This document shows, one piece after another, positions 7,739 to 58,629 of a stretch of DNA of 64,000 nucleotides. Source of the stretch: Nitrosopumilus sp. (GTDB taxonomy: Archaea > Thermoproteota > Nitrososphaeria > Nitrososphaerales > Nitrosopumilaceae); assembly GCA_965214775.1 (NCBI GenBank), contig OZ243974.1:2432001-2496000 (forward strand), in the 5' to 3' direction. Below the pieces are notes generated by a model. That model did no database searches. It was given only the letters and a program-made list of their open reading frames with translations, and was not told the DNA's origin. The stretch's first letter is position 1. Every line of letters begins with the position of its first letter. A program made the translations under genes and the position numbers.

Positions 7739-7741
7739 GTC

Positions 7742-8601: not shown

Positions 8602-8691
8602 TATGGCTCATCTCCGTATCTTTCTGCATTTCTGCATTTCTGCCTTCCTTTATGTATGCCTGCATGTGTTCTTGGAGTTTCAGTGTCCATA

Positions 8692-10789: not shown

Positions 10790-10887
10790 TGTTAAGACGC
10801 GTCATCGAAAACCCTCTATTAAACCATGTGTAACTTGGTTAACCTGGAATATTTTTGTGGTTAACTGCCTGCCTGTGTCCGAAATTT

Positions 10888-11007: not shown

Positions 11008-11016
11008 TGTATGTGA

Positions 11017-11832: not shown

Positions 11833-11867
11833 TGTTGTATGGTATTGCAGGCAGTTAATATCTTTAG

Positions 11868-12605: not shown

Positions 12606-12746
12606 TTGATTCAAATGTTTTGGAGTTTAATTTAAAGTCTGCCCATGACCTGCCCGGGTTGGCATTTCTGGGATGGGCCTGAAAAATAGCCGCTTTTTTG
12701 CCGTTTTCCTTGATCCCTTAAGTAATATTTTGACGTAGTCAATGAA

Positions 12747-40568: not shown

Positions 40569-40654
40569 GGCAGGATTGCTTAGCAAGGTTAAAGCGACAG
40601 ATTCAGGATCTGTATCTCTCGCCGAGATCGTGGGTTCAAGTCCCACTCCTGCCG
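40569..40654 (+). tRNA. Atypical class II tRNA, anticodon CAG (nominally Leu), discriminator G
   Basis: GGCAGGA/TCCTGCC acceptor, GCTT/AAGC D-stem, ACAGA-TTCAGGA-TCTGT anticodon arm, ATCTC/GAGAT variable arm, GTGGG-TTCAAGT-CCCAC T-arm. Confidence 0.85.
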
Positions 40655-40703: not shown

Positions 40704-41241
40704 GTAAGAGTTTACCCCTCAGGCGACGTTTCCAGTCAGGGTCTTGGCGACCATCTCACTCACGTTGCAACCTTGGGCGCGCCAGTTCATCGTGCATGTC
40801 ATCAGTACGGTGAACATCTCCATGCCCTCCATGGTACGGAGTCTCTGGAATATCTTGCGCGCAATTACGGACGGCCTCAGTATGCGCTCGGCTAGATTGT
40901 TGGTGGGCTCCATGCCCGGATACAGCACGAACGTGTACAGGTATTCTGAGGCATTCTCAAGCTTTGTGGCAAATTTTTTGCAACCTGCCTCCCTGAATGC
41001 TACGGCCAGCGCGCGTGTCTCGACTACCAGCATGTCGTGTTGTTGCTGCCTGACACCGTTCTTCTTCTCCTCCGGTGGTGGTGGCCCCAGCCCCTTGGCA
41101 AAAAGAAATTTTTTCTTGAGGGCATCATACAGTTCGTGGGCCTGCCGGGAAGTCTTGCCGGCGTCCTTGGCCTCCCGGAGTATGTGTGCCCAGCACCACT
41201 GCCTGATCTTGAATACGACATATACGCCGTACCCATCAACT
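40704..41241 (-). pseudogene. IS66 transposase 3' half plus TIR
   Basis: VDGY, QWCWAHILRE, TNNLAERILRP motifs; TIR GTAAGAGTTTACCCC at 40704. Confidence 0.88.
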
Positions 41242-41315
41242 GTGTCAGGTTTATCACTCCCAGGCAGCAGAACCCCCCTTAAATCAGAGCCGTTCATTGC
41301 AGGGGGGGAAGGACA

Positions 41316-42758
41316 GTGAGTGACACCGCAAAAAAGGCGTGGGGACGGCACCGGAGGCTGCTTGAGGATCCCGACGTGAGGCGGTGGTGCGACAACATCG
41401 CAAGGGGAAGCGTGGTGACGGCCGAGGTCAGGCTGGGCAGGCTCGGCATCTACTGTGAGAGGACCGGCACCACTCCCAGGGCCTTTGCGCAGGCCGGAGT
41501 CGACGACGTGAAGAAAGTGGAGGACATGCTGATGGATCACGTCTCGTTTCTGGAGGGCAGGGGATACGCGCCCTCGTACATAGCAGACATCCTCACGGCG
41601 CTGCGCTCCTGGCTGTCGTTCAACTACGTCAGGCTTGCCCGGAGGATAAGGATCAAGAATGCGGACATTCCGGTGACGCTGGAGGACGAAGTGATTCCGA
41701 CCAGGGAGAGGATCCAGGACGTGCTGGACTCGGCGCCGGCAAGGGAGCGCGTGTCGATATCGCTGATGGCCTTCTCAGGGGTGCGACCGCAGGTGCTGGG
41801 CAACCACCACGGCGAGGACGGCCTCAAGGTGAGGGACATCCCGGATCTGGAGACAGACGGCAACGACGTCTCCTTTGCCCGGACGCCTGCAAGGATAACC
41901 GTAAGGCCGCAGCTGAGCAAGGCGGGACACCAGTACTTTACGTTCCTGCCAGAGGCCGGGTGCAGGTACATGCAGGGATACCTCAGGGAGAGGATCGCGG
42001 GGGGCGAGAAGATCGGACAGGACTCGCCCATAATCACGTTCGTGAGGGGGTACCGCGCAAAGTCAGGCGGCAAGACGTGTCACGTGAGGACGGTCACGGT
42101 GGCCAAGGGGATCAAGGGCGCCTTTGGCATAATCATGAGGGAGCGGCCCTACGTCCTGAGGTCGTACTTTGACACGCAGCTGCTGCTTGCAGAGAGCAGG
42201 GGCGCGATGACGCACGCGTACCGCCAGTTCTTCATGGGCCACAGGGGCGACATCGAGGCAAGGTATACCACCAACAAGCACAGGCTTGCCGACGAGCTCG
42301 TATCGGACATGAGGGAGGCCTACGGGCGCAGCCAGGGGTTCCTCGTACCGGGCGCCGAGGGGGAGGAGGCGGCGGCATCAAAGGACAGAAGGGAGCTGCT
42401 GCTTGAGATGTGGAGGGAGCAGGCGCAGCTGTACGGAATCGACCCCGTGAAGATAAGGATAGAAAGGCAGGGGGCGTCATCATCATCGCAGGGCAAAAGA
42501 GCCGGGCAGGCAGCTGCCGCAGATGATCAGATAGGCGCCATCAAGGCGGCCATTCAAAGGATAATCAGGGGGGAGGGCGGGGCACAGCCACTGGCAGGCG
42601 GCAAAAAGCCATACGAGGGCAGGCTGGTCGACGGCGAGAAGGATCTCGTGGCGTGCATCGAGGACGGATGGGAGGTCATAAGGGAGCTGAACGGCGGCAA
42701 GGTCCTTCTAAGACGCAGCACCGCAGGCGGGAGGGCGCCCCGTCACCCCGGCCAGTGA
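41316..42758 (+). CDS. Tyrosine recombinase / site-specific integrase
   Basis: SGVRP (R), LSK (K), RPYVLR (Y-x-x-R in place of H-x-x-R), MGH (H), ARY (Y); GC-rich. Confidence 0.9.
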   Translation: MSDTAKKAWGRHRRLLEDPDVRRWCDNIARGSVVTAEVRLGRLGIYCERTGTTPRAFAQAGVDDVKKVEDMLMDHVSFLEGRGYAPSYIADILTALRSWLSFNYVRLARRIRIKNADIPVTLEDEVIPTRERIQDVLDSAPARERVSISLMAFSGVRPQVLGNHHGEDGLKVRDIPDLETDGNDVSFARTPARITVRPQLSKAGHQYFTFLPEAGCRYMQGYLRERIAGGEKIGQDSPIITFVRGYRAKSGGKTCHVRTVTVAKGIKGAFGIIMRERPYVLRSYFDTQLLLAESRGAMTHAYRQFFMGHRGDIEARYTTNKHRLADELVSDMREAYGRSQGFLVPGAEGEEAAASKDRRELLLEMWREQAQLYGIDPVKIRIERQGASSSSQGKRAGQAAAADDQIGAIKAAIQRIIRGEGGAQPLAGGKKPYEGRLVDGEKDLVACIEDGWEVIRELNGGKVLLRRSTAGGRAPRHPGQ

Positions 42759-42952
42759 CCCGGCCGGCCCTCCATTTTCTGGCACGCCATCCCGGACGTT
42801 GCGGAGGGCGGCGCGTTGATCAGCTCAGGCCGCCTCCATGATGCCTGCATCTGCCCCGTCCGAGATCTCCACGTGCAGACAGCAGTGGGGATTCCTCCTG
42901 AAATGCCAGACCGGACCGGATGACCACGATGCAACGCCATCCTCCCGGAAGC

Positions 42953-43021
42953 TGGCAACGGTTGCCAACTAGCGGGAACCTTTCTTCTCTGTAGTTGGCA
43001 ACGGTTGCCAACTAGCGGGAA
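42953..43021. repeat. 43-bp-period palindromic direct repeat (2 copies)
   Basis: tggcaacggttgccaactagcgggaa at 42953 and 42996. Confidence 0.9.
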
Positions 43022-43149
43022 TCAGCAGATCCGACTGTACCTGAAGACGCGGCAGAACGCCACGTTTTGACGATCATCTGATCCGTAGCGAACAGGCACA
43101 AAGATCCATGAGGAGCCAAGCAGGGAGGAGAAAAAGGCGCATGTGTAAC

Positions 43150-43430
43150 CGCCATTTGATCTCCGGCCTTGAGAGGATCAAAGCCGTGGTCGTCAAAGGT
43201 ATTGCCATGCTTGCCTGCACCACGACTCGGGATGCTCCGCCCGCATCACCCGTCCTGAGATCTTTTCCCGCAGGCCTTGCCCCCACAGGCTTTCATTGTC
43301 GTGCCGTTTGACTCGTCGTCCACCGGAAGAAGCTCCATGCCCCAAGCCACAGCCTGTCTGCAAGTCTCTTTGGGACGCCGGACACGGCTGCCCCGCTGCC
43401 GTGCCCACAGATGACCCCGGGCCATGCCTT
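43150..43430 (-). pseudogene. Degenerate AbrB-family gene (module A)
   Basis: One frame reads GHGSGAAVSGVPKRLADRLWLG (AbrB xxVPKxLAxxLG motif); frameshifted; homologous to 44440-44730. Confidence 0.5.
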
Positions 43431-43560
43431 TCGTACGGATTCCGTGCGTCCAGAGCCTGGACAAACTCAGGGCGTGTCTTTGCAAGCTTTGCAAAAAAAC
43501 CTTGCAATCTTTGCAAAGACGTTCGTGGCAGGCTGACTCGCATTACCCTGTGGTTTCCCA

Positions 43561-43900
43561 AAAAACGAGACCAGAGCGCCCGGGCCCTCAACGAGGCCCC
43601 TGACCCCACACAGCCTTCCGGGGAGTCAGAGTCGTCCCGGTCCCTTATCTTCACCTGAGTGAAAAATTCCCTCAGGCCCCACACTGTCATTCCGGATCGA
43701 GGGCCGAGGCATTCTCGCGGGCTGAAATCACTACGATTAATCACAGATGACTGATCTCAAGACTTCACAATGATGTCATGTCTGGGGAAGGGGTCGAAAC
43801 TGTCAGAAAACATGGCAGGAACCAAAGCATGAGAAACAGAGTTGTAAACAGCTGCCGGGAGCACGTAAGGTACAACATGACAAAGTGGAAAGAGATGTAG
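43561..43900. repeat. Conserved non-coding module, copy A
   Basis: GGGCCC hairpin - tgacccc..cagccttcc - GGGA/GTCCC hairpin - cacctgagtgaaaaattccctca, then a conserved AT-rich block; see copies B-D. Confidence 0.85.
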
Positions 43901-44315
43901 CGCGCACATCAAAAAATGGATCATGGTTTTGCCGCATCGTGCCTATTTCGATAAAAAACATCCCGTTTTCGACTGTGCGCACCATGACCGGCCATCCTTC
44001 GGGCATTCTGCCTTACCGCATAATCCTGCCTGAAATTTGAAACTTGGCAAAAAAATCACCAAGATGATCAGCGGATCCCCGGCCAAGAGGGCCAGGGATC
44101 ATCGATGATGGGAGGTTGCCCCCGGGCGGCACTGCCTGCCGGGATCTTGGTGATCATGTCCACATATCGCATCCCGGGGATGGGGCAAGCTCTTGCCTTG
44201 GCGATCCCCCGATGATATCTGCGTTTATCCTGCGAGTTCCCCTCGGGCAGGCAGCAGTGAGTATTTTCCTAAAGCGCCAAAGGCCGAGCCGGATGACCGC
44301 AATGCAACACCGCAA

Positions 44316-44425
44316 TCTTCCCTGTAGTGGACTACAGTAGCCCACTAGCGGGAACTTTTCTTCCCTGTAGTGGACTACAGTAGCCCACTAGCGGGAACTT
44401 TTCTTCCCTGCTACTGGCAACCGTT
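44316..44425. repeat. 43-bp-period palindromic direct repeat (2 copies plus a partial)
   Basis: tcttccctgtagtggactacagtagcccactagcgggaac at 44316 and 44359, partial at 44402. Confidence 0.9.
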
Positions 44426-44439
44426 GCATGTGTAATCAT

Positions 44440-44730
44440 CATTTGATCTCCGGCCTTGAGAGCGGATCAAAGCCGGGATCATCAAAGGAATTGTCGTGTC
44501 TGGGCCTGTCCCGCGCCTTTGAGGGCGCGCCGTCCACACCGCCCGTCTTGAGATCCTTTTTTGCAAGCCTTGCCTTCATCGGCTTTGCCATTGTCGTGCC
44601 GTCTGACTCGCCCGTCAGGAGAAACCCCTCCCCCCCTCTATGCTCCAAGCCACAGCTTGTATGCAAGTCTCTTTGGGACGCTGGACACGACTGCCCCACT
44701 GCTGTGCCCGCAGATGACTCTGGGCCATGT
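44440..44730 (-). pseudogene. Degenerate AbrB-family gene (module B)
   Basis: VSSVPKRLAYKLWLG in one frame; KARLAKKDLK...RPEIK tail resembles the intact 45426-45734 protein. Confidence 0.5.
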
Positions 44731-44822
44731 TTTTTGTACAAGTTACATGCATTCAGAGCTTGAAACAAACTCAGGGCACGTTTTTGCAAGCTTTGCAAAA
44801 AAACCTTGCAAGCTTTGCAAAG

Positions 44823-44940
44823 GTAACAGGTTAGCCCCTGCCTAGAGTTGGAGTTGCATCCCTTGCCGGCCAGGCATGAAAATCACAACTGCAGGCAGAT
44901 TCATGCCTGATTGCTGCTTAGGCAGGGGCTAACCTGTTAC
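44823..44940. mobile_element. MITE (118 bp), 22-bp TIR, 8-bp TSD
   Basis: TIR GTAACAGGTTAGCCCCTGCCTA; TSD TTGCAAAG; the paralogous site in copy A (~43511) is empty. Confidence 0.92.
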
Positions 44941-44990
44941 TTGCAAAGACATTCGTGGCAGGCTGACTCGCATTACCCCGTGATTTTCCA

Positions 44991-45330
44991 AAAAACAAGA
45001 CCAGGATGCCCGGGGCCCTCAACGAGGCCCCTGACCCCACACAGCCTTCCGGGGAGTCAGAGTCGTCCCGGTCCCTTATCTTCACCTGAATGAAGAACTT
45101 CCTCAGACCCCACACTGTCATTCCGGATCGAGGGCCGAGATATCCTCGCTGGCTGAAATCATTACGATTAATCACAGAGGACTAATCTCAAGATTTCATA
45201 ATTATGTCATGTCTGGGGAAGGGGCCGAAACTGTCAGAAAACATGGCAGGAACCAAAACATGAAAAACAGAGTTGTAAACAGCCATTGGGAGCACGTAAT
45301 ATACAACATGACAAAGTGGAAAAAGATAGG
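44991..45330. repeat. Conserved non-coding module, copy B
   Basis: Close homolog of 43561-43900. Confidence 0.88.
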
Positions 45331-45425
45331 GCTTGACAGGTGTCACATATGGTCCAAAAGCCCCCAGATACACCAGATTCACGCCTCCCTTGTGGATGAG
45401 GAGAAAAGAGACGTAAGGCTGATGT

Positions 45426-45734
45426 CTATTTGATCCTGAATTTTTCCAAGGCACTCGTCCTAGGGGCGGCCTCTCCGGCGGGGGAGCCTTCGTTCTTTTG
45501 TCTGCATTCCCTCATTGCCTCATCAAAGACCCGCTCATATCGGTCAATGTCTGTGAGGTCCTTTTTTGACAGGCTCTTTCCACCCGGTGTCAGCACGATT
45601 TTGCCGCCAAGGTCGTGGAACCGTATGTGTTCGCCTGATCTCAAACCTAGGCTTTGTACCATCACGGACGGAACGACCACAAAAAATGAACAATTGTCCT
45701 TGATGCGGAGCCTTCGCTCATGTATTTTTTCCAT
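45426..45734 (-). CDS. AbrB/MazE/SpoVT-family DNA-binding protein (module C)
   Basis: RRLRIKDNCSFFVVVPSVMVQSLGLRSGEHIRF...KIVLTP. Confidence 0.75.
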   Translation of the reverse strand: MEKIHERRLRIKDNCSFFVVVPSVMVQSLGLRSGEHIRFHDLGGKIVLTPGGKSLSKKDLTDIDRYERVFDEAMRECRQKNEGSPAGEAAPRTSALEKFRIK

Positions 45735-45914
45735 GCCGTCAGCAAATGTTGGATATTCATTTAAGACTCGGTGCCAAAGGCGCCAAAAAATGGCGCCAAA
45801 GGTGCGTTTGGTACCTGCCCGACAGGGGCCAAAGGCGCCAAAAAATGACGCCAAAGGCCCTAATCTCCGAGGGCCAGTAACGGAATTTCAACTCGCATTA
45901 ATACACAAAACACG

Positions 45915-46300
45915 AAAAACGAAACCAGAACACAAGGGCCCCCGAAGGGCCCCCTGACCCCCCACAGCCTTCCGGGACGCCGAACCGTCCCAGTCCCTTA
46001 TCTTTACCTGAGTGAAAAATTCCCTCATATCCCATTGAATCAGGCAATCGTCTTTGGATAGACAGGATGAAATCATGCCCGCCAACCGGGAATCATTACA
46101 GTTAACCCCGGATGATTGATTTCAAAATTAGTGTCATGTCCGGAGGAATATCAAGAACCATGGCAGGAATCAAGAACATGAAAAACAGAGTTTATCAATT
46201 CTGAGGATATTGGCTATTTCCCTTTCTATCCTGTCATGATACATCATGTGTCTCGGAATCTTTTGAATCTTTTGCACGCCAAAAATCTGTAATTTTTAAT
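45915..46300. repeat. Conserved non-coding module, copy C
   Basis: gggcccccgaagggccc, gggacg-ccgaac-cgtccc, tacctgagtgaaaaattccctca, then AT-rich block shared with copy D. Confidence 0.85.
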
Positions 46301-46560
46301 CACTCATTGGCTGTCATAGGAATCATCCGGGGAGATCATCTTCCCAAGGACAGGACGGGGGCCTTGTCGCCTGTGGTTGCAGGATGCCCTAAAAGCAGAG
46401 TCCGCAGCTCCGGATAAAGCCGTCCCGGGCATGTCAGATACAACATGGCAAAGCGGAAAAACTTGGCTTTGAGCAGTGTCACGTGTGGTCAAGGAACCCA
46501 AAGGTTCACGAGATCCTCGCCGGCCTTGACGAAAAAGAGGGACGGATGTCAGGACTGGTG

Positions 46561-46827
46561 TCATTTGATGTGGAGTTTTTTGAGCTTTTCTGCAGACAGA
46601 TCCGTCTCCCTCATCATGTCGTCCAGAACCCTGTCGTACTTGGTCCTGCCCTTCTCCGGGACATCTGCTGTATGCGCGGGGATCAGCTCCAGCCTGTCCG
46701 GGTGCGCCCCGAACTCGACGAGCTGGCCCTCGGCAATGCCGAGATCGTCTGCCAGCGCCTTTGGAACCGTAACGATGAGGCTGTCGCCCTGCCTGCGCAC
46801 CTTTCTGTAGTGTTTTCTTTCAGACAC
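46561..46827 (-). CDS. AbrB/MazE/SpoVT-family DNA-binding protein (module D)
   Basis: RKVRRQGDSLIVTVPKALADDLGIAEGQLVEF...LELIP, canonical AbrB signature; GTG start. Confidence 0.85.
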   Translation of the reverse strand: MSERKHYRKVRRQGDSLIVTVPKALADDLGIAEGQLVEFGAHPDRLELIPAHTADVPEKGRTKYDRVLDDMMRETDLSAEKLKKLHIK

Positions 46828-46879
46828 ATACTGTAACCGTGTTCTTTGATTTAAGGGCCAGAGTTTTTTTGCAAAATGT

Positions 46880-47222
46880 ACATAATGTAGCTTTTCACTA
46901 TTTTCAGGCTTCAAAAAGCTACATTTTCACTACTTCCGGTTCAACATAATGTAGCTTTTCACTATTTTCAGGCTTCAAAAAGCTACATTTTCACTACTTT
47001 TCAAATCACTATTTTCACTACTTTCACTACTTTTCAAATCACTATTTTCACTACTTTCACTACTTTTCAAATCACTATTTTCACTACTTTCACTACTTTT
47101 CAAATCACTATTTTCACTACTTTCACTACTTTTCAAATCCATACTTTCACTATTTTTTGCACTCACAAATCCATACTTTCACTATTTTTTGCACTCACAA
47201 ATCCATACTTTCACTATTTTTT
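46880..47222. repeat. Compound tandem repeat built on TTTCACTA
   Basis: ~64-bp duplication, then 33-bp units (about 4), then ~32-bp units (about 3). Confidence 0.9.
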
Positions 47223-47279
47223 GCCCCATGATTTCAACTCCCACACACCAGACCTCTCGCATTATACCACCACACACGA

Positions 47280-47660
47280 GAAACGAGACCGGCCCGCCCG
47301 GGCCCCTACGGGGGCCCTTGACCCCCGACAACCTTCTGGGACGTCAGAGCCGTCCCAGCCCCTTGAGTCCTACCTGAATGAAGAACTTCCTCAGACTCCA
47401 TACCATAGCTAAGCCGACGAGATAAAACCAACCATCCACGGGCTATCATTAACCACAGATAACCAATTTTAAAATCATAATATCATGTACGGAGGAATGT
47501 CAAGAATCATGACAGGAGTCAAATGACCATGAAAACACGGAGTTTACAAAATCTGAGGGTATTGGCTATTTCCCTTTCTATCCTGTCACGATGTACTACA
47601 CGTCTCGGAATCTTTTGAACTTTTTGCCCCTCAAGATTCATGATATTTTTAATCATTCTT
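47280..47660. repeat. Conserved non-coding module, copy D
   Basis: gggcccc-tacg-ggggccc, gggacg-tcagagc-cgtccc, tacctgaatgaagaacttcctca, AT-rich block. Confidence 0.85.
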
Positions 47661-47706
47661 TGGTTATCATCAGATCATTTGAGAATATTAGACTTTATGC
47701 GTAATC

Positions 47707-48900
47707 GGGGTTGTCCAAAAAATTTCCGCAAAACGACCGACAAGCTTATAGATCATGAGCGCACGGCGCCGAAAATGATTTTGATCTGCCGATCCTGGAT
47801 ATCCCAATGAGCAACAACAGGAAGGACACGGACTATAACCGCCTTTACGAGCAAAAGCGCAGGCAGGAGAGCTCCCGCAAGAAGAGGACAAGGAGGAACC
47901 TGGGAAAGATCGTACGCAGGGTGGCCAAGAAGATGGCCGCCGAAACGGGAATCGATGCCGGCCTTGCGTGGTCTGCCATACGCATTGCGATCCTCAGAAT
48001 CGAGAATCGCCTGTCCTACAGGAGGATGGTCACGCACCTGGAGTCAAACCCGGACGATCTCAGGAGATGCGGCCTGAGTCGTACGCTCTCCAAGTCGACG
48101 CTGCACAACAGGATGACCATGCTCTGGAGAATGGGCAAGGACTTTATGGACGAGGTCGTACTGGCCATGTCCGAAGGCGAGCGCATAGCGGACCTGCACG
48201 GCGACTCGACGGGATTCGGCCTCCGCAAGTACAAGAGCTGGAGCCACGCAAAACATGGGGAGGTGACCGGACACGACTTTGCAAAACTGCACGCAATTGC
48301 TGCAATCGGGGGCAAGATACTGTCATTTGAGGCCACGCCGGGCACGTCGGGGGACTCGCCGGAGTTTGCCCGCATGATGAGCCGCATCCCCAAGGGCGGA
48401 TACGGAATCGTGGCGCTGGATTCGGCATACGACTCGTACAAAAACTGCGAGCTGATTGCAAAGAGCGGCCGCGGACCTGTCATAAAGCCGGCAAAGGGGC
48501 ATGAAAAGCCACGCGGGTTTGGCGCCCGGGCCAGGATGCTGCAGTGGCTGCGTGACAGGCCAGACGAGTTCTGGCAGGCCTATCACAAGAGGAGCCAGGC
48601 AGAGTCCCTGTTCTCGGTAATGAAGGAAAGGGCTGGATCCGTCCTGCGTGCAAAGCTGGACGGAACCATCACTGTAGAGCTGTTCGCTCGCGTGTTGTGC
48701 TACAACCTTACGGTGTAAATCATCACAAATCCCGTACTGTTGGACCGCAACACTACCGTAAGGTATGGCCTGCATGGATATTTGCGTTGCTGTATGCGCC
48801 GTTCTGGCCGTCCGGGGCCGCCAAGTGCTCTATATTGCCGTCTGAGACTGCCTATATCGGGGGCAAATTGGCAGCCTGCGGAAAAAAATTGGACAACCCC
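47707..48900 (+). mobile_element. IS5-family element (transposase 47807-48718), diverged isoform of 25341-26539
   Basis: TIR GGGGTTGTCCAA; 303-aa transposase homologous to the first copy; no matching TSD. Confidence 0.9.
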
Positions 48901-48908
48901 ACACGCGG

Positions 48909-49949: not shown

Positions 49950-50000
49950 CAACCCCACACGCGGCGGTAGCCTTTTTAGAAACATGTCCGTAGTCCTGCC

Positions 50001-51413
50001 ATGATCAGGCGCCTTGCCGTAACAGGACTTTTCCTCGTTCTGGCAGCAGCTGCCGCTGCCACCGCGCACGCAGAGGTGCCACCGCCCCCGCTAAAGCAGC
50101 TTGCAGCCGGCGTCTCTCCCGACGGGGTCCTGTGCAGGGAGGGGCTCGTGCTGGTCGTGCGCGACACCGGCGGCGCAGTATGCGTGAGGGATAACACTGC
50201 AGAAAGGATGGGGTGGACCGTAACTATACCAGATGCCGGCACCGCCGAGTCCACGCACCTGCTGCTGCAGGCCGGCGGCCTGGTGCCAGTCGAGATTTCG
50301 GACTATTCTGGGATCGTGTCAGCAAACAACGACTTTGCAGTCGACTTTTACTCACACGTAGCCAGGCAGGAGGGCAAAAACATCGTATTCTCACCGTGGA
50401 GCATCTCCAGCGCCTTTGCACTCGCACACGAGGGGGCGGGGGGCGACACGAGGGACGAGCTCACAGATGCGTTCGGGTTTCCGGAGGAAAAACGCCTGCA
50501 GTTTGGCTCGGCAATGGTGGATCTGAACAGGCCCGACACAGAGTACCGGCTGTCGGTTGCAAACGCACTGTGGCTTGCAGAATGGCTCGAGCCGCTAGAG
50601 GAGTACGTGCAGACCGCAAGGATATACTACGACAGCGGCGTGGAGATGGTGGACTTTGGGTCCGGTGACGCGGTCAAGACGATTAACGGGTGGGTGTCAG
50701 ATAACACCGGCGGCAGGATAAAAGAGGTCATGGCGCCCGGCTCCGTCGGCGCCGCAACGCCGCTGGTCATAACGAATACAGTATACTTCAAGGGCGACTG
50801 GGTGAACACGTTTGGCGGAGGCAGTACCATCGAGGACTACCCGTTCTGGGCGACCCCCGACAAAAAGGTAACGGTTCCGATGATGTACACAAAGGATGTT
50901 GGCTACAGGCACGCAAACGTGGGCACGCACCAGATCCTTGAGATGCCGTACGTGGGCGACCGCATCTCCATGCTAGTACTGCTGCCAAACGAAAAGGGCG
51001 GGATAGGCGAGCTGGAGGGGATGCTGAGCGCCGAGAGCCTCGAGGAGTGGAAGGGAGATCTTGTAGATAAAATACTGCAGGTCTATTTTCCAAGATTCAG
51101 CCTTGACATCTCGTACAATCTAAGAGAGGACCTGTCCGCGATGGGCGTGACCTCGATCTTTGGCGAGGGGGCCGACCTTTCTGGCATCGCCGGGGACGAG
51201 CGGCTGCACGTGTCAGACGCAGTCCACAAGGCGTTCATAAACGTAAACGAAAAGGGGACGGAGGCCGGGGCCACAACTATAATAGCATCTAGTTCGTCAG
51301 GGCCTCCGACGTTTACAGCAGACCACCCGTTTGTCTTTGTCATACAGGACATGGAGACGGGCAACATACTGTTCATCGGAAGGCTGTCCGACCCGTCCCA
51401 GAGCGGCAGGTGA
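50001..51413 (+). CDS. Secreted serpin with N-terminal thaumarchaeal PPLKQ-type domain
   Basis: Signal peptide; NIVFSPWSI, INGWV...T.GRI, NTVYFKGDW, EKGTEAGA hinge, FTADHPF, LFIGR. Confidence 0.93.
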   Translation: MIRRLAVTGLFLVLAAAAAATAHAEVPPPPLKQLAAGVSPDGVLCREGLVLVVRDTGGAVCVRDNTAERMGWTVTIPDAGTAESTHLLLQAGGLVPVEISDYSGIVSANNDFAVDFYSHVARQEGKNIVFSPWSISSAFALAHEGAGGDTRDELTDAFGFPEEKRLQFGSAMVDLNRPDTEYRLSVANALWLAEWLEPLEEYVQTARIYYDSGVEMVDFGSGDAVKTINGWVSDNTGGRIKEVMAPGSVGAATPLVITNTVYFKGDWVNTFGGGSTIEDYPFWATPDKKVTVPMMYTKDVGYRHANVGTHQILEMPYVGDRISMLVLLPNEKGGIGELEGMLSAESLEEWKGDLVDKILQVYFPRFSLDISYNLREDLSAMGVTSIFGEGADLSGIAGDERLHVSDAVHKAFINVNEKGTEAGATTIIASSSSGPPTFTADHPFVFVIQDMETGNILFIGRLSDPSQSGR

Positions 51414-51805
51414 GCCGGCACATGGTACGCCACATGTGGGCGTGCCGGCACACGCTGTCCTGCACGGCCGCTGCAGACTATGGATGCACAGCTATCCCGG
51501 CAGGCAACGGCTCGCCCTGGCCGCCTTGATCTACGTCATGTGTGTGGTGCCCAGCTTGGACAATCACTTATCCGTGCGATCCCGACCTCACCGCTGCCCA
51601 GCATGCTGTCCGAACACCATCCTCCGGTGCATCCGTGAGTCATATCTGGGAAGACTGCACCTGTGAGAGGTCAAGGTCGTTGCAACATGCAGGCACGAAT
51701 CTTGTTGCAAGATGATTTGGGCATGGCTGAAAACCGGGGTGGCCCAGCCGATTACCTGCGCCCCATGCAAACGTCTTTTATAAAACACCATGATAATCTT
51801 AAGGC

Positions 51806-54800
51806 ATGAACCAAGCAGTCGCATGTCTTGCCATCCTGCTGCCAGTCTTGCTCTCCGTTCCGGCTTTGTCATTCTCAGAGTCAGGTGAGGTACAAGACAA
51901 CCTGTACAAGTTCGATGACGGCTTTTATGAAAAGATCCAGCACATGCAGAACATGACATCGCATGGAAGGGCAGACAGTTCGGACAACGCAACACTGGCT
52001 GCACATTCCGTAATAATAGTCACAGATGACGGATACGAAGACGGATTGGAGCAAACGCTAAGGGAGATGGGCTCGCGGGACATATTCAAGTCAAAGAGCC
52101 TGGACTTTCTCATCGCCGACGTCCCGGTGAACAGGATAGCGGAGCTGGCAGGCTATGATCACGTCTACAAGCTTGGAGACGGACATGGGGAAATGACATC
52201 GTCGGCATCACCGTCAAGACTACCGCCGGCACTGACACTGGCGCAGGCCAAGGCCGTAGTTGGCGCCACCAACGTAGGCTCCGACGTGTATCCGTATACT
52301 GGCAGGGAGATCACCGTTGGACTGATTGGTACGGGCACGGATTTTACACACCCTGATCTGCAAAACAAGAATGCTGCCTCGCTCCTATGCACCCAACTCC
52401 AATGCATTAATGCTTCACTGCTGGCCGGTACCAACCGTGCCACTTCGACTTCCGCAGTCATAGCATCCAACAGCACCAACCCCGCAATGGCGGGGATGGC
52501 ACCAGACTCCATGATACACGACGCTCGCTTAGCTGGCGTGACTCACGTGGGTGAGAGTTCCGTGGCAAAAAATACCTTTGCCAGGGCACTTGATGAGATG
52601 ATGACCAGCGATATCACTGTGGCACTTTCAATACTGGCAAATACTGAAAGTTATGGATGCAACGACTATTCTGCCCTCACCATTGTCACCGACAGGGCGG
52701 TACACGAGGGCTTGAGCTTTTCCATGGCCATCGGAAACAAACCAGATAACACGGCGGCGTTTCCCCCGCCACACATACAGAAGCTGGCATGCGGCTTTAA
52801 CTACATCAGCGCAGGTGCAGTCGACAAGGACAGAATCCTGTGGAGTGACAGCGTTCCCGGACCTGCCCAGTTCAACACCCCTGGCGGCGACTCACCCAGA
52901 ATAAAGCCCGAGATAACCGCAATCGGCGTAGATCTTGACCTTGCACGGGCCGCAGATCGCAGAAATATGATAAACCGTGACTATGAAATAGACAGCGGCA
53001 CGAGCTTTGCCACCGCCTTTGTGGCAGGCGCCAGTGCCCTGATCCTAGAAAAGCAGCCGGACTACCGGCATCTGGAGATAAAGTCCGCACTGCTGCTCGG
53101 CGCAGACTGGCAGGCAGACACGCCGGCGACGGCAGCAGACTATGATAACCGGAGGGCCGGGATATACGATACCATGAACCGGTACGGCTTTGGCATACTC
53201 AACGCAACGAGATCACTTGACTATGCCAACGACAACCAGTACCCGAACGTCCTGTACGACCAAAGCTCAGGCGACTTTGATGCAAACTCGTACAGGATCT
53301 ACGCAGGCGCAGGCGAGCAGGTAAAGGTGCTGCTGTCCTGGCTGGTGCATCCGAGAGGCACGGTACTGTCGCCCACCCTTCCAATCGGCAGCCCCCACAT
53401 CCAGCTTCCAAGCCAGTACCACAACTATGACCTGGCGGTGACGTTTCCCAACGGCGTGACAAGGACGAGCGACTCTGACGTCCAGAACAACGAGTTCGTC
53501 GTGTTTGACGCGCCGGAGACCGGATTCTACACCATCACCGTGAGCTCCGACGGGACGCTGACGACTGCCATCGGCGAGCCGTACACCCTGGCAAGCACGC
53601 ACGGGATAGACAAGTTCCCATACGACCTCGTCGTCCCGGTCACGGAGTTCGCAGACGACTTTGAGTCGGACCTCTCAAAGTGGGACCTGTCCGGCGACTC
53701 TGACTGGGAGATCGGGGACCCCGACGAGGACGTGCCCGGCGAGAACAGCCGGACAAACCAGGCGCTCATATCGAGCAACTGCGACACTGACTGCATCGCC
53801 ACGACATCCTCGACGTTTGACACGCAGGACGCGCTGACCGTCTCCTTTGACAGGTTCGTTGACTCCAGCGTCGATGCCGGGGAGGGCCTGTTTGTAGAGT
53901 ACTCTGCAGATGGAACCAACTGGATCAATCTTGCAAGCTATACCCACAACAACCGCGAGGACAGCGGCTCGTGGAGCAGCGAGTCCCTGTCCCTGGACAT
54001 CACGGAGGACACCGCAAAGATCAGGTTCGTGGCAAAGTCCAGCTCCTCAAGCGAGCACGTCGAGATAGACAATGTTGCAGTCATGGAAAGTGACGGAGGC
54101 GGACCCTCGGACACGACTGACCCCGTAATCACCGCGCCCGCCGACGTCACGGCCGAGGCCACCGGCGTGCTGACTGCCGTATCCATAGGGCAGGCCACTG
54201 CCATCGACAATCTGGATCCCGACCCGGCGATAACAAACGACGCACCAGAGTCGTTTCCCATAGGCGACACCACAGTCACGTGGACTGCCACGGATGACTT
54301 TGGCAACACGGCCACTGCCACCCAGACTGTTACGATACAGGACACCACGCCGCCCTGGATCACGGCGCCTGCCGACCGTACCGCAGAGGCCACCGGCGTG
54401 CTGACCGTGACATCCATAGGGCAGGCCACTGCCATCGACATTGCCGATCCCGACCCCACAATAACAAACGACGCACCCGCGTCGTTCTCGCTAGGCGACA
54501 CGGTAATCACATGGACTGCCACAGATGATTCGGGCAATGCGGCCACTGCCACCCAGACTGTTACGGTTCAAGATACCACGCCGCCGAGCATCACGGCGCC
54601 TGCTGACCATACAGCAGAGGCCACCGGCGTGCTGACCACAATATCAATAGGGCAGGCCACTGCCACCGACAATCTGGATCCCGATCCTGTCATCACGCAC
54701 GACGCACCAGAGTCATTCCCGCTCGGCGACACCATAGTGACATGGACTGCCACAGATGACTTTGGCAACATGGCGACTGTCACCCAGACTGTTACGATAC

Positions 54801-57292
54801 AGGACACGACACTGCCGAGCATAACCGCACCGCTAGATGTCACAACCGAGGCTTCCGGCGTGCTGACTGTAACATCCATAGGGCAGGCTACGGCCACCGA
54901 CAACTTGGATCCCGACCCGGCAATCACAAACGACGCACCGGAATCGTTTCCCCTAGGTAGCACGACAGTCACGTGGACTGCCACGGATGATTCGGGCAAC
55001 GCGGCCACTGACACCCAGACTGTTACGATACAGGACACGACACTGCCGAGCATAACCGCACCGCCAGATGTCACAACCGAGGCTTCCGGCGTGCTGAGTA
55101 TAATATCAATAGGTCAGGCCACGGCCACCGACACTGCCGATCCCGACCCGGCAATCACAAACGACGCACCGGAATCGTTCCCGCTCGGCGACACCATAGT
55201 GACATGGACTGCCACGGATTCCTCCGATAATGCCGCCACGGCCACACAGACCGTGACGATACAGGACACCACGCCGCCGAGCATCACAGCACCCGCCGAT
55301 CATACGGCCGAGGCTGCCGGCATCATGACAATCCTGAATGCCGGCGACTATGGGACTCCCACCGTGTCTGACATTGCCGATCCCAGCCCCACAATCACAA
55401 ACGACGCACCGGAATCGTTCCCGCTCGGCAACACCACGGTAACGTGGACTGCCGCCGATTCCTCTGGCAACGAGGCGACTGCCGCCCAGACCGTTACGAT
55501 ACAGGATACGACGCCGCCTGCCATCTCCGGCCTGCGCAATATATCCGTGGATGATCCGGCGGGCCGGGGAATGGAAGTCAGCTACGATGCGCCTACAGCT
55601 ACAGACCTCGTAGATGGGGCCGTGGCAGTATCATGCACGCACGAGTCAGGATCGACGTTTGCGCCCGGATTCACCGAGGTGTCATGTATGGCGACAGACG
55701 GCTCTGCAAACTCGCTGCGGGACTGGTTTATCATACACGTGGACGCATCTGACGCCATCCTGGACGTCTCGCAGACCGTGAGCACGGGCCGGTCCACGTG
55801 GAGCGTCACGGGCCCGGACAGGATATTCGCGGGGCAGACCTTCGAGTATACCGTAACCCTCGAGGACGGGGCGAGGCCCAGGGAGGAGGCCCTTGCCGTG
55901 TACAGCGCTGCGCCGGATACGCGGTACCTCGGATGGCATGATCCCGATGCAGACTGCCAGACTATATTGTGCGCGGGGTTTCCCGAACAAAAGCACAACA
56001 CGTACAAGATAGCCAGTGACGAGGACTCGCCGTATACTGCCATGCACAACAAGATGAAAAAGTCCAGATCCAGCCACACCATACTGTTGCAGCCGGCAGC
56101 CGACGCGCCGGCGGGGGCGCAGGCCACAGTCGGCATGCTGGACGCCAGCTACAACCCGGTGGGAGGCATACCGGTAACGGTGATGCCGCCGTCCACGAGG
56201 ACGGTAACGGACGGGGACACCACCTGGAGGATCACGGGCCCCGACAGGATATTTCCGGGACAGACATTCGAGTATACCGTGACCCTTGATGGCACAAGGC
56301 ACCAGCACGACGCCCTTGCCATATACAGCGACTCGCTTACGGTGGACGACTTTGGGGGACTCGCGGATGACTCTGCATGCGGCACGACCGTATGCACTGA
56401 CTTTCCCGGGCAGCGGCGCCGCACGATGGAACTTGACAACCACGCAGGCTCCTCATACGACGTGAGGTATCACACGATCAACGCGCCCGGCTCCCAGTAT
56501 ACGATACTGCTGAGGATCGCCGACGACGCAGACGCGGGAGGCACGTTCAGGGTAGGCCTAGTGGACGGGGACGGAAGTCCGATGGGCGGCATACGGGTCA
56601 CGATCGCCGATCCCGTGACCGTAACGGCCCCCTATGAGGAGCTCGTGGCAGGCCTGTCCTTTGAGGGCAGCTTGGCAGATATCACAGGGGACAACAACGG
56701 CACGGCTGCAGGGGGTATCTCATACGTGGAGGGCAGGATAGGCAGGGGGCTGCAGCTTGACGGCTCTACGAACGTCACCCTCGCGGGGGAGGCCGACTTT
56801 GACTTTGGGCGGACCGACCCGTTCAGCATTGCGTTCTGGCTCAGGCAGGATGCGCCCGTCAACGGCAGCACCATGATAATGTCCAAGGCAGAGTCGTTCG
56901 GCCATACCGGCTCGTACGTGTGGGTATGGGGAGGGGCGCCCAACAGGGTCCTGCTTTCGATACACGACAACTCCACGTTCATAAACGTGCATACACCGCA
57001 ACACATGAACATGTCAGACGGCGCCTGGCACCATATCGCATTCACGTACGACGGCTCGGGCGCAAAGGAGGGACTGAACGCGTATATCGACGGCGAGCAC
57101 CGGGACTATGACCACTTCCGCAGGGGCCAGGGGCTGGCAGGCGACACGACAAACGACCATGCGTTTACGGTGAGGACCACCAGCTGGGGGGACCCCGACA
57201 GGATCGACTCGGTGCTTGACGAGCTGCGCGTGTACGGCGCCGAGCTGTCGGCCCGGCAGGTGCGGCTGCTGCATGCGGCGGGCCTCGGCTAG
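51806..57292 (+). CDS. Giant secreted S8 subtilase-like protein with HYR/Ig-like repeats and C-terminal LamG domain
   Basis: Signal peptide; HPDL, AIGN, IKPEITA, SGTSFA; seven ~78-aa DTTPP.ITAP...TVTWTATD..GN repeats; DGAWHHIAFTY...LDELRVY (LamG). Confidence 0.88.
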   Translation: MNQAVACLAILLPVLLSVPALSFSESGEVQDNLYKFDDGFYEKIQHMQNMTSHGRADSSDNATLAAHSVIIVTDDGYEDGLEQTLREMGSRDIFKSKSLDFLIADVPVNRIAELAGYDHVYKLGDGHGEMTSSASPSRLPPALTLAQAKAVVGATNVGSDVYPYTGREITVGLIGTGTDFTHPDLQNKNAASLLCTQLQCINASLLAGTNRATSTSAVIASNSTNPAMAGMAPDSMIHDARLAGVTHVGESSVAKNTFARALDEMMTSDITVALSILANTESYGCNDYSALTIVTDRAVHEGLSFSMAIGNKPDNTAAFPPPHIQKLACGFNYISAGAVDKDRILWSDSVPGPAQFNTPGGDSPRIKPEITAIGVDLDLARAADRRNMINRDYEIDSGTSFATAFVAGASALILEKQPDYRHLEIKSALLLGADWQADTPATAADYDNRRAGIYDTMNRYGFGILNATRSLDYANDNQYPNVLYDQSSGDFDANSYRIYAGAGEQVKVLLSWLVHPRGTVLSPTLPIGSPHIQLPSQYHNYDLAVTFPNGVTRTSDSDVQNNEFVVFDAPETGFYTITVSSDGTLTTAIGEPYTLASTHGIDKFPYDLVVPVTEFADDFESDLSKWDLSGDSDWEIGDPDEDVPGENSRTNQALISSNCDTDCIATTSSTFDTQDALTVSFDRFVDSSVDAGEGLFVEYSADGTNWINLASYTHNNREDSGSWSSESLSLDITEDTAKIRFVAKSSSSSEHVEIDNVAVMESDGGGPSDTTDPVITAPADVTAEATGVLTAVSIGQATAIDNLDPDPAITNDAPESFPIGDTTVTWTATDDFGNTATATQTVTIQDTTPPWITAPADRTAEATGVLTVTSIGQATAIDIADPDPTITNDAPASFSLGDTVITWTATDDSGNAATATQTVTVQDTTPPSITAPADHTAEATGVLTTISIGQATATDNLDPDPVITHDAPESFPLGDTIVTWTATDDFGNMATVTQTVTIQDTTLPSITAPLDVTTEASGVLTVTSIGQATATDNLDPDPAITNDAPESFPLGSTTVTWTATDDSGNAATDTQTVTIQDTTLPSITAPPDVTTEASGVLSIISIGQATATDTADPDPAITNDAPESFPLGDTIVTWTATDSSDNAATATQTVTIQDTTPPSITAPADHTAEAAGIMTILNAGDYGTPTVSDIADPSPTITNDAPESFPLGNTTVTWTAADSSGNEATAAQTVTIQDTTPPAISGLRNISVDDPAGRGMEVSYDAPTATDLVDGAVAVSCTHESGSTFAPGFTEVSCMATDGSANSLRDWFIIHVDASDAILDVSQTVSTGRSTWSVTGPDRIFAGQTFEYTVTLEDGARPREEALAVYSAAPDTRYLGWHDPDADCQTILCAGFPEQKHNTYKIASDEDSPYTAMHNKMKKSRSSHTILLQPAADAPAGAQATVGMLDASYNPVGGIPVTVMPPSTRTVTDGDTTWRITGPDRIFPGQTFEYTVTLDGTRHQHDALAIYSDSLTVDDFGGLADDSACGTTVCTDFPGQRRRTMELDNHAGSSYDVRYHTINAPGSQYTILLRIADDADAGGTFRVGLVDGDGSPMGGIRVTIADPVTVTAPYEELVAGLSFEGSLADITGDNNGTAAGGISYVEGRIGRGLQLDGSTNVTLAGEADFDFGRTDPFSIAFWLRQDAPVNGSTMIMSKAESFGHTGSYVWVWGGAPNRVLLSIHDNSTFINVHTPQHMNMSDGAWHHIAFTYDGSGAKEGLNAYIDGEHRDYDHFRRGQGLAGDTTNDHAFTVRTTSWGDPDRIDSVLDELRVYGAELSARQVRLLHAAGLG

Positions 57293-57620
57293 CTTGTGCG
57301 ATCACGGCGGGCCCGGCCTGCGGCAAGATCCTGTACTGGCCAGTAAGGATTCTCGAAGTGTTTCATGATCAGACGCCCCTGCAAACGGACGATGACATTG
57401 AAGGATTTGTGACTGCCGGCATGCCCCACAGGCGGCACTGCCTGCCGGGGCCTTTGCTGCCGCGCATTCCGCGCGGTATCTTCCGGAGGGGGCAAGGCTC
57501 TTGTCGCGTATTGGTAGAACGCAATCCAAAACAATTTTAAGCCGACGCATCCGTTGATACGGTGAGCATCTTGATGGGATTCAAACGTGTGGGGGTTTCA
57601 TCGCTTGGGTGTGGTAAACC

Positions 57621-58629
57621 GTAACTGGTTTATCATAATACGGAAAGTTCGTATCCACTACGACCCTGGCCCTGCTGGGTGCGGCCAGCGTGTGGACGCC
57701 GGTCGTGGAGCCGTCCTTGTTCTTGCCCACTATTACCCATATGCGGGCCGTCCTGCCGTTGTATGGCATGGCAGTCTCGTTAATGTGCAGATAATCAGAA
57801 TCCTTGATGGCCTGCTTGATACCCTTTACGCTGGGCTTTATTGCCTTGGTGCAGGCCCTCAGGCACTGCAACACGCCTGCCTCTGAGACATCCATGTCCA
57901 GGATTTCTGAGCACATTGTGGCCGTTGCCTGTATGGAGGCAGGTGCCATGTGCATTGAGGTTATCATCCCCGTAATGTTTGGTCCAAACTCGGTTCCCTG
58001 CACGTTCCAGTCCCTGTCATCCTCGATACACACGTGGCCGCAGTCGGCGCATTCGCGTTTGTATGCGGTGTGCTCTGTCGTGACCGGTTTGGGCTTCTTG
58101 GGGATCTCAGTCACGGTCTTTGAGAACAACTTTTCGGGCTTTTTCATGTTGGTGCTGTTGCACTTGTCGCACTTTTTGGGGCAGTGCTTTACAAACTCGG
58201 TCGGTTTTCTCTTGTGTGATACTCCCTTGTGTCCCGGTTTGCGGCCCGGTTTTGCCTTTGCAGATGCCGGTACGTTGCCTGATGCCTTTGCAGCAGCAGT
58301 CTTTTTCTGTCTGGTAGGAATCGAGTTCTGCGAGGAGGGGGTGTGCGGGTTCTCGTAATATTTGATGTGCTGTTTGAGCTGCTGGTTTTCTGCCGTCAGC
58401 AGCACGACCTGTGTTGCAAGCTCGGCCTTCTCTGGCATCTTTGACTACTACCTGCTGCAGATCGGCGATGGTTTTCTCATTCTTTCGGCACTCGGCTATG
58501 AGACGTGCAATCTCGTCGCGCAGTATCTTGACCTCCGAGCCTGATGACATGCATTTTCCTAGGTACTACTATCTTATAGATCGGGTGGTCAGAAAGAATT
58601 CACCAAATAGGTAAGGGGTAAACTCTTAC
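57621..58629 (-). pseudogene. IS66 transposase 5' half (frameshifted) plus TIR
   Basis: YYENPHTPSS, CDKC/CADC Zn ribbon, HINET (first catalytic D appears mutated), ...YYDKPVT; TIR ends at 58629. Confidence 0.88.

Follow-up and report, generated by a model that had tools for sequence, protein, structure and literature searches.

A tyrosine recombinase element in an IS66 gene of a Nitrosopumilus genome: its junctions, its relatives and its choice of target

The stretch of DNA analysed (the window, 64,000 nt) covers positions 2,432,001-2,496,000 of a Nitrosopumilus sp. genome that forms one contig of 2,833,656 bp (G000). Within the window an insert of 16,379 bp, named E1 (window 41244-57622), interrupts a transposase gene of the insertion sequence (IS) family IS66 and carries its own integrase gene next to the left end. 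The letters were read directly at both ends, and the left junction reads catcaact-gtgtca-ggtttatcac (41234-41257) and the right junction gtggtaaacc-gtaact-ggtttatca (57611-57635). Re-read to the base, these agree with the letters and coordinates of a preliminary description of the locus. GT is common to both junctions, and the boundary is therefore ambiguous by 2 nt. The features at the two ends are as follows.

40704-41241, minus strand: C-terminal half of the host IS66 gene with the IS end (terminal repeat GTAAGAGTTTACCCC at 40704; 91-98% by blastn; Pfam DDE_Tnp_IS66, 132-283/284)
41232-41241, plus strand: left arm from the target (B arm) CCCATCAACT, matching the P arm of E1 at 4/10 positions
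41242-41247, plus strand: attL overlap GTGTCA, with GT also in the target and GTCA from the element
41248-41278, plus strand: left end, consisting of the P' arm (10 bp) GGTTTATCAC and the inner repeat (21 bp) TCCCAGGCAGCAGAACCCCCC, placed by the register table and inverted relative to the right end at 22/30
41316-42758, plus strand: integrase, 480 aa
57590-57620, plus strand: right end, consisting of the 21-bp inner repeat and the 10-bp P arm GTGGTAAACC, identical in a second genome (G041) and with a homologous remnant at 2,043,872 of G000
57621-57626, plus strand: attR overlap GTAACT, native to the target as judged from intact IS66 copies
57627-57636, plus strand: target right arm GGTTTATCAT, 9/10 identical to the P' arm of E1
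57621-58629, minus strand: N-terminal half of the host IS66 gene with the IS end (90-98% by blastn; Pfam zf-IS66 and DDE_Tnp_IS66 21-121)

The interrupted IS66 gene and the integrase

About ten further IS66 copies, 91-98% identical by blastn to the halves that flank E1, were found in G000. The uninterrupted site CATCAACT-GTAACT-GGTTTATCA was present in nine of the ten intact copies, and the remaining one had GTAGCT; GTGTCA was therefore brought in by E1, and GTAACT at the right belongs to the target. The 6-mers of attL and attR differ, and that at the left is foreign to IS66. Removal of E1 restores the reading frame, as had been proposed. The N-terminal half in the window stops at ...NFPYYDKPV, the C-terminal half begins with TVDGYGVY..., all three intact copies translated read ...NFPYYDKPVTVDGYGVYVVFK..., and the Pfam IS66 DDE profile is divided across the halves (positions 21-121 and 132-283 of 284). 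The comparison with intact copies that had been suggested as a check of the reconstructed junction thus came out in its favour (9/10). One detail was corrected: the spacers had been said to have only their first two bases in common, and positions 1, 2 and 5 are identical (3/6). The pattern GT-N4-GGTTTATCA was counted 11 times in G000 against 1.35 expected, and ten of these 11 are IS66 sites or the two junctions.

The ends of E1 are inverted, with 9/10 matches between the arms and 22/30 over 30 bp, as first described (binomial P about 4e-8 for a fixed pair, p=0.25). The repeats lie flush with the junction at the right and 4-6 bp inside it at the left, and beyond the common GT there is no target duplication, again as claimed. 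It had been noted as a caveat that the outer IS66 flanks show no matching target-site duplication. This is so here and is not peculiar to this copy, for an 8-bp duplication was absent in all five IS66 copies examined (2,076k, 2,068k, 1,800k, 1,804k and the window copy). Two of the five have the same right flank, GTTCCACGTTGCC, and appear to lie in copies of another repeat. A contig from an independent public run (X3) covers window 41214-41756, that is, the IS66/E1 left junction; this argues against misassembly, which had been named beforehand as a possible objection, on the left side. No contig across the right junction was seen among the matches listed for the public runs.

The integrase gene begins with a GTG codon at 41316, 68 bp inside the left arm, in keeping with the earlier estimate of about 70 bp. 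Its open reading frame (ORF) is whole and is not split by integration, whereas elements of the SSV type split their own integrase gene; integrative elements in which that gene stays intact after integration are labelled pNOB8-type. No Pfam family was matched by the protein at E<=0.01, PF00589 (Phage_integrase) included. NCBIfam gave nothing relevant, and the PHROG integrase family phrog_1 was a weak match (E 0.098). When solved structures were searched with a profile, nothing but spurious TALE-repeat and hemolysin rows came back. The TALE-repeat matches were weak ones summed over residues ~29-64, an N-terminal helix pair (...RLRRLGxFCExxxxTPxxL...), each stretch being insignificant, and they were treated as spurious. 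The neighbours in the Atlas were unnamed archaeal clusters, one of them, in which 24% of the members carry PF00589, being labelled 'putative site-specific integrase'. Because the family is divergent from curated models, the fold was used as the deciding criterion.

A structure was predicted with AlphaFold2 from an alignment of 15 homologs (pLDDT 74.4) and compared using Foldseek, which gave 45 matches at E<=0.001. XerA, IntI, Cre, XerH and lambda Int were among the best listed. The best matches had probability 1.00 and E values of 2.7e-07 to 1e-04 and took in both domains over ~330-360 columns; archaeal XerA (5hxy) was matched at E 2.7e-07 and IntI (2a3v) at E 4.9e-07. R157, K202, Y279xxR282, H309 and Y317 were invariant in the 15-homolog alignment, the catalytic roles being assigned from motif position in that alignment and not from residue-level superposition. 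On the predicted fold the protein is a divergent tyrosine recombinase, and the fold matches agree with the original description of E1 as a mobile element of that kind. It has the two-domain fold of XerA and IntI and differs from them in sequence (11-19% identity), in a Tyr (Y279) at the place of the His in the HxxR motif, in a C-terminal extension of ~130 aa that is also lacking in its 40%-identity paralogs, and in its role, which would be the integration of a mobile element rather than the resolution of dimers or the capture of cassettes. In G000 the integrase has twelve matches, three of them at 79-81% identity; in 40 related genomes the nearest relatives were 49-50% identical.

Copies of E1 at other sites and related elements

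A degenerate 30-mer matching both ends of E1 was searched in one genome per species and in a metagenome collection. It gave two matches, which share a single 3.2-Mb contig in a different archaeal genome (G041), and none in the metagenome collection. The copy in G041 is 15,320 bp long and matches E1 at 100% identity over 7,673 nt and at 99.94% over 7,667 nt; its integrase is 100% identical, and only a nested rve-family IS (48909-49947) is missing from it. The DNA of the rpoB region is 81.8% and 78.5% identical between G000 and G041 in two segments, and the collinear genes of the first 13 kb of the window are 70-72% identical; with rpoB DNA at about 80% identity, the two genomes belong to different species.

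The junctions in G041 read ...GGTTTGAATT-GTGTCA-GGTTTATCAC at the left and GTGGTAAACC-GTGTCA-GGTTTGGAATCG... at the right. This copy sits, with GTGTCA on both sides, in a member of a family of miniature inverted-repeat transposable elements (MITEs), here called MITE-A, which is ~125 bp long, is abundant in G000, has the terminal repeats CAGTCTTCACAGA...TCTGGGAAGACTG and carries the site ...GAATT-GTGTCA-RRTTTGG.... Among nine other MITE-A copies of G000 the native overlap was GTGTCA in five and a one- to two-base variant in four. GTGTCA followed by RRTTT occurs eight times in G000, seven of these outside attL of E1. One of the seven, located by this motif count, is an uninterrupted MITE-A at 1,012,049 that is identical at 104/104 positions to the left flank and overlap of the G041 copy. 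No uninterrupted copy of the exact MITE was found in G041 itself at <=2 mismatches, and a scripted test of collinearity with G000 gave none. A second repeat, MITE-B (~95 bp, 84 BLAST matches in G000, terminal repeats GTAGTGCGCACA...TGTGCGCACTAC), has one copy inside E1. An autonomous IS behind either repeat was considered and rejected, the upstream genes varying from copy to copy; since these genes differ and both repeats have terminal inverted repeats of their own, both were treated as MITEs. Example loci of MITEs in G000 are 1,936,111 and 934,506.

The left-junction region was found in seven public runs from three studies, in all cases as contigs, and four of the seven were compared. X4 and X7, from one study, each hold a 928-nt contig in which E1 runs from exactly 41241 (T-GTGTCA-GGTTTATCAC...) and is joined to other DNA, a junction that is absent from G000. 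The last 54 nt of this flank match the MITE-B copy at window 43905-43958 with a 3-nt deletion, and the MITE-B consensus continues as ...GATAAAAAA-TGTCCAGATTT.... It would be a third E1-type target, having (T)GT in common with the element, the GTCA having been carried in. In a further run (X1) a contig joins 48891 to 49948, with 17 ambiguous bases, and represents E1 without the nested rve IS, like the G041 copy. GTGTCA was thus found at all three E1-type left junctions (IS66 in the window, the MITE-B-like flank in X4/X7 and MITE-A in G041), and all three targets have T followed by GT at the exchange point. The diversity of targets that had been proposed is borne out by these sites. Two species, as well as public runs from different years, hold near-identical E1 copies at differing sites, from which the element is concluded to be active or recently mobile within and between species.

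The same data bear on the idea that no integrase was involved, the insert being either a DDE transposon that duplicated 2 bp (GT) or the product of two IS66 halves misjoined in assembly. IS66 is indeed multi-copy, GT is common to both junctions, and two nested IS transposases lie inside E1. The nested IS, however, have copies elsewhere, and one is missing from the G041 copy. The inverted repeats show a 4-bp offset on just one of the two sides, as would be expected with an internal overlap of 6 bp but not with terminal repeats. The same boundaries recur, exact to the base, in G041 and in contigs from further runs, and the left junction is spanned by a contig of an independent run. We find this explanation hardly credible.

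Further elements were found by a search of G000 for the inner repeat at <=5 mismatches, which gave 11 matches; eight are ends of one family and three look like chance. The ends have a common register, from the outside inward a flank, a 6-mer, a 10-mer arm and the 21-bp inner repeat, so that the end layout first described for E1 recurs at other element ends, in G041 as well as in G000. Besides E1 the following members were placed in G000.

481,812-516,404: E2, in an rve-family IS gene at the ...NGKLE/R... codons; CTCTCC on both sides, native in three copies of that IS subfamily
583,973-654,597: E3, at the 3' end of tRNA-Ala(GGC); CCTTCC on both sides, the right flank being like the native tRNA trailer
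1,025,929: E4-L, a left-end remnant in a further rve subfamily; its CGCTCC is the native 6-mer of the two closest copies
797,464: R797, a right-end remnant in an rve IS site
1,774,257: R1774, a right-end remnant in an rve IS site
2,043,872: R2043, a right-end remnant in MITE-A

Homology to the target begins directly after the 10-mer arm at five of six reconstructable right ends (E1, E2, E3, R1774 and R2043) and is off by 1 nt at R797. On the left side of E2 and E4-L it continues through the 6-mer. From this fixed start a 6-bp overlap at a set distance from the inner repeats was deduced. In one IS copy the rve gene contains the E2-type arm and overlap, GCCGTGGAAC-CTCTCC, without a mismatch, which indicates that the elements pick sites mimicking part of attP. 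In E2 and E3 the arms match poorly as inverted repeats (5/10 and ~3/10, counted by hand), whereas the inner repeats are conserved; it is from this contrast that we infer the inner repeats to be high-affinity sites, the core arms presumably being read loosely. R2043 reads GTGGTAAACC-GTGTCA and lies at the same MITE-A position as the G041 copy. R1774 differs from the E2 end at one of 46 bases, and the native overlap at its site is CTGCAA in seven identical intact copies. It is likely to be a second non-cognate case, with only CT common to CTGCAA and CTCTCC, the attP overlap predicted from E2. No left partners of R1774 and R2043 were found; the element sequence left is 2.8 kb at R2043 and <0.4 kb at R1774. 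E4-L and R797 were considered as the two ends of one 228-kb element and rejected as such, their flanks coming from different rve-IS subfamilies. Although their integrases are 79-81% identical, members of the family have come to use targets of three kinds: a tRNA gene, a motif in IS transposase genes and a MITE.

For these homologs the preliminary description had named two outcomes that would tell against it, namely a lack of these ends and an invariable location at identical tRNA att sites. The homologs have the same end layout; the overlaps of E2 and E3, however, are identical on both sides, and E3 does lie at a tRNA-Ala 3' end, which goes against the description on its second point.

The ...HPQTNGKLER(F/L)H... 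codons of rve-family transposase genes are a repeated landing site of the E2 type, in three IS subfamilies and in both genomes (G000 481,812, 516,404, 797,464, 1,025,929 and 1,774,257; G041 L053, L055 and L059). The right ends R797, L059 and L053 in rve IS genes are 1 nt short against the intact IS (G or C gone in two, T in one), possibly through junction slippage or later decay. At L055 (988,250 of G041, minus strand) the right-end flank reads ...GGCAAGCT-AACC-GGAGCG-arm, the extra AACC being like the tip of a left arm, and this is possibly a nested or tandem junction. An E4-type remnant is 97.8-99.3% identical between the species (G041 L037/L058 against G000 L019) and lies at different sites; its integrase is truncated at residue 438 and is read on into a 553-aa frame.

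Two other explanations of the junctions are bound up with these ends. According to one, a classical crossover took place in the 9-bp direct repeat GGTTTATCA, so that attP would be GTGGTAAACC-GTAACT-GGTTTATCAC and the IS66 copy would formerly have had GTGTCA. The repeat is present at both junctions, and both possible empty sites are in frame (...KPDTVDGY or ...KPVTVDGY). As a classical att core it was rejected: the GTGTCA that it predicts occurs in none of the ten intact IS66 copies, three substitutions in 6 bp would be needed in a copy otherwise ~97% like its relatives, and GTGTCA stands beside both arms in G041 and beside GTGGTAAACC in R2043. The probability left to it is very small.

The other follows Tn916 and Tn1545, which insert without target duplication and whose junction 6-mers can differ. 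Staggered cuts 6 bp outside the ends would make the 6-mers coupling sequences that come from the previous site, change with each hop and imply little target specificity. The 6-mers of attL and attR do differ in the window, one of them being foreign to the target; one type of element was found in three different targets; and GTGTCA, native to MITE-A, might stem from a donor site of that kind. A variable sequence should nevertheless differ between insertions, and GTGTCA is constant at the three left junctions in three targets and stands on both sides in G041. The 9/10 palindromic arms around the 6-mer have the form of a core site with an internal overlap, the overlaps of E2 and E3 are identical and match their targets, and by its fold the enzyme goes with Xer, IntI, Cre and lambda Int. 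A Pfam scan of 20 ORFs of E1 found no conjugation genes, the small ORFs being without assignment. An origin of the Tn916 type is judged distinctly improbable. Instead GTGTCA is, on the sequence evidence, the fixed attP overlap of E1 with a cognate site, and not a variable coupling sequence, since it is constant at the three known E1-type left junctions and native to MITE-A. The likeness to Tn916 and CTnDOT proposed at first therefore does not extend to variable coupling sequences; a narrower likeness to CTnDOT, identity at the first two overlap bases, stands.

Interior and cargo of E1

Behind the integrase the element holds the following features.

42759-47706, no strand: internal-repeat region with no assigned function, holding a MITE-B copy (~43897-43986) and two AbrB/MazE-fold ORFs
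45426-45854 and 46561-46914, minus strand: AbrB/MazE-fold ORFs (Pfam MazE_antitoxin, E 1.8e-08 and 0.0049)
47707-48810, plus strand: nested IS with a DDE_Tnp_1 transposase (ORF 47807-48718; Pfam E 2.7e-14), with G000 copies at 85-87%, inside the block that is 99.94% identical to G041
48909-49947, minus strand: nested rve-family IS (Pfam rve), a recent insertion, with seven other G000 copies at 99.6-100% and missing in the G041 copy
50001-51413, plus strand: cargo serpin with an N-terminal signal-like segment (Pfam Serpin, E 1.9e-106)
51806-57292, plus strand: cargo S8 subtilase of 1,828 aa, secreted-type (Pfam Peptidase_S8, HYR in 7 stretches and Laminin_G_3, a C-terminal LamG-like domain)

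The serpin and the giant S8 subtilase bear out the earlier statement that E1 carries cargo. None of 10 small ORFs of the 42.8-47.7 kb region was matched in Pfam. The G+C content of E1 is 0.44-0.63 per kb, with 0.55-0.63 at the integrase end and beyond 48 kb, and that of the flanks is ~0.46-0.52; because the subtilase and serpin have paralogs elsewhere in G000 that share much of their sequence, composition alone is no proof of foreign origin. These serpin and HYR-repeat subtilase paralogs (83-93% nt identity) lie at 1,223k, 411k, 2,041k, 2,695k, 1,445k, 1,537k, 1,640k and 257k. A module of protease and inhibitor is thus expanded in G000, with at least one copy on a mobile element.

Two stretches of G000, 577,806-580,999 (just outside the right end of E3) and 1,214,203-1,220,126, are 77-95% identical to the interior of E1 at ~42.8-47.4 kb. 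No integrase was found beside them by tblastn, and they may be decayed relatives. In the window, a tRNA-Leu(CAG) lies at 40569-40654 (plus strand; Rfam 57.8 bits, ARAGORN), ~50 bp beyond the end of the host IS66, and the IS-rich neighbourhood may itself stand beside a tRNA-linked island. The first part of the window (1-13,000) has a sustained strand skew, with AT skew down to -0.66 and GC skew down to -0.36, and likely holds large fast-evolving genes.

Target use and a possible route of integration

We consider it probable that E1 is an integrative element moved by its own tyrosine recombinase, for which the IS66 copy was a non-cognate site and MITE-A is the cognate one. In the circular form attP would read GTGGTAAACC-GTGTCA-GGTTTATCAC, with near-palindromic 10-bp arms, the 21-bp inner repeats behind them and the 6-bp overlap between. 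Identity to this attP was counted in each target.

MITE-A (cognate): left arm 3/10, overlap 6/6, right arm 3/10 (consensus)
IS66 site: left arm 4/10, overlap 3/6, right arm 9/10
MITE-B consensus, with GTCCAG as native 6-mer: left arm 4/10, overlap 2/6, right arm 4/10

The right arm of the MITE-A in G041, GGTTTGGAAT, is 6/10 identical to attP by hand count. GT stands at overlap positions 1-2 in all three targets. The first pair of strands would be exchanged at the boundary of the P arm and the overlap, where two identical bases (GT) would permit ligation, as in IntDOT, the remaining overlap being unable to pair. The second step might be a homology-independent exchange, with the heteroduplex sorted at replication; alternatively, the Holliday junction might be resolved by replication or by a host resolvase. 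Either route would yield an attL with the overlap of the element and an attR with that of the target. Weak recognition of the target arms, combined with strong binding to the inner repeats of the element itself, would account for the loose choice of target.

Strict overlap identity is the textbook rule for tyrosine recombinases, and the known exceptions (IntDOT, Tn916 and NBU1) are bacterial. With CTnDOT and IntDOT the present case has in common a tyrosine recombinase, mismatched overlaps in the products and a target flank that resembles the element end; the E1 target shares GT, and the R1774 target probably CT, at the equivalent position. It differs in that no sequence relation was detectable, the host is archaeal, the scanned ORFs of E1 held no conjugation genes, there is a cognate site at which the whole overlap is identical, and the overlap is 6 bp, that of IntDOT being 7 bp. 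From Tn916 and Tn1545, whose coupling sequences vary by site, E1 differs in its constant GTGTCA. For IntDOT itself, the abstracts of two papers (PMC2034462, PMC2817482) state that identity is needed at only two bases by the first cleavage and that the rest of the overlap may be heterologous.

In a classical element the overlaps of attL and attR are identical to each other and to the empty site, which is so for the G041 copy, E2 and E3 and not for E1 in IS66. The insertion in the window could be a rare accident of a classical homology-dependent integrase at a secondary site like those of lambda or SSV1, with no special tolerance and with the element trapped. The overlap is that of the native target in four complete or half-reconstructed insertions (E2, E3, the E1 copy of G041 and R2043), and a review of archaeal tyrosine recombinases (PMC8371274) notes mismatched SSV1 secondary sites and the suggestion that they hinder excision. 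The same text mentions an SSV1 site differing at two nucleotides, secondary sites 'with a mismatch' and att identities down to 8 bp in Thaumarchaeota. Lambda Int, SSV1 and SSVK1 are like E1 in that a site-specific integrase uses an occasional divergent site, but the divergence of E1 is far larger (arms 4/10 and 9/10, overlap 3/6) and extends to at least two non-cognate targets. Against an accident speak also the other non-cognate junctions, of which there are two (R1774, which shares only CT, and the flank resembling MITE-B in X4/X7), and the cognate-type MITE-A sites of G000 that are unoccupied although E1 sits in IS66. Three of the six overlap bases mismatch, moreover, and mismatches there are rarely tolerated by classical enzymes (abstract of PMC2817482). 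We regard an accident as rather unlikely.

Non-cognate integration by a relaxed recombinase has, for its part, a number of points against it. Differing overlaps at both junctions are found in one complete insertion only, that of the window. The overlaps are identical in E2, in E3 and in the G041 copy, and the heterology may therefore be a rare accident rather than a tolerance by design. The MITE-B case consists of a left junction taken from a contig summary and not from the letters of the flank; for R1774 the left end is missing and the attP overlap comes from a near-identical relative. The left 6-mers of the E4 type differ by genome (CGCTCC and CCATCC), and a rule that attL always keeps the overlap of the element fails across the family. 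The right MITE half in G041 is only 33/45 identical to the G000 copy at 1,012,049, and the two flanks may come from different MITE copies. No excisionase was identified, and no circular junction was seen among the matches listed in the public runs, which are contigs and drop rare forms. A joint that skips from 41241 to 57621 in X4 and X7 was rejected as evidence of excision: it stands at 5-6 times single-copy depth, which matches 5-6 identical intact IS66 copies, and gives no unambiguous empty site. The cleavage positions, the order of exchange and the binding sites were, finally, all deduced from sequence. The matching dinucleotide itself (GT in attP and in all three E1-type targets, CT in the R1774 target and the E2-type overlap) comes from few cases, one of them with a predicted attP.

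Taken together, the earlier interpretation is partly supported. The overlap is truly mismatched, and E1 in IS66 is best read as relaxed, IntDOT-like use of a target by an element whose overlap is fixed and whose cognate site is a MITE. No archaeal counterpart of coupling sequences or overlap heterology was found in the literature searched or in the available text of PMC8371274, in which MITEs are not mentioned and 'heterolog' occurs once, in 'heterologous expression'. A literature search on Nitrosopumilus with integrases and serpins gave nothing relevant. The survey of thaumarchaeal integrated mobile genetic elements by Krupovic et al. 2019 (PMC6563490) describes XerC/D-like recombinases and targets in tRNA genes, protein-coding genes and intergenic DNA. 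E3 at tRNA-Ala fits this pattern, whereas the element boundaries were set there by flanking direct repeats, which are lacking for E1 in IS66. The survey also states that bacterial-type composite DNA transposons with passenger genes had not been detected in archaea. E1, E2 and E3 may already be catalogued in that survey.

A wider reading, possible but on balance doubtful, is that the whole clade works like IntDOT, needing a two-base match and a loose half-site, and consists of tyrosine-recombinase transposons that land preferentially in MITEs and IS genes as harmless, multi-copy pads common to several species, ferrying serpin-subtilase cargo between ammonia-oxidising archaea. If true, this would be the first archaeal homology-independent tyrosine recombination and would offer a ready-made integration tool for these organisms, for which we know of no genetic system. 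With attP, a cognate attB and one or more heterologous attB sites defined for a natural enzyme of archaea, the question can be tested directly in vitro. Since its sites are known and it tolerates imperfect targets, the integrase could plausibly serve as the basis of an integration vector. The integrase series, 79-81% identical and directed to three kinds of target, is a compact natural set in which shifts of specificity can be followed, and in E1 a 7-kb cargo of protease and inhibitor is carried by an active element.

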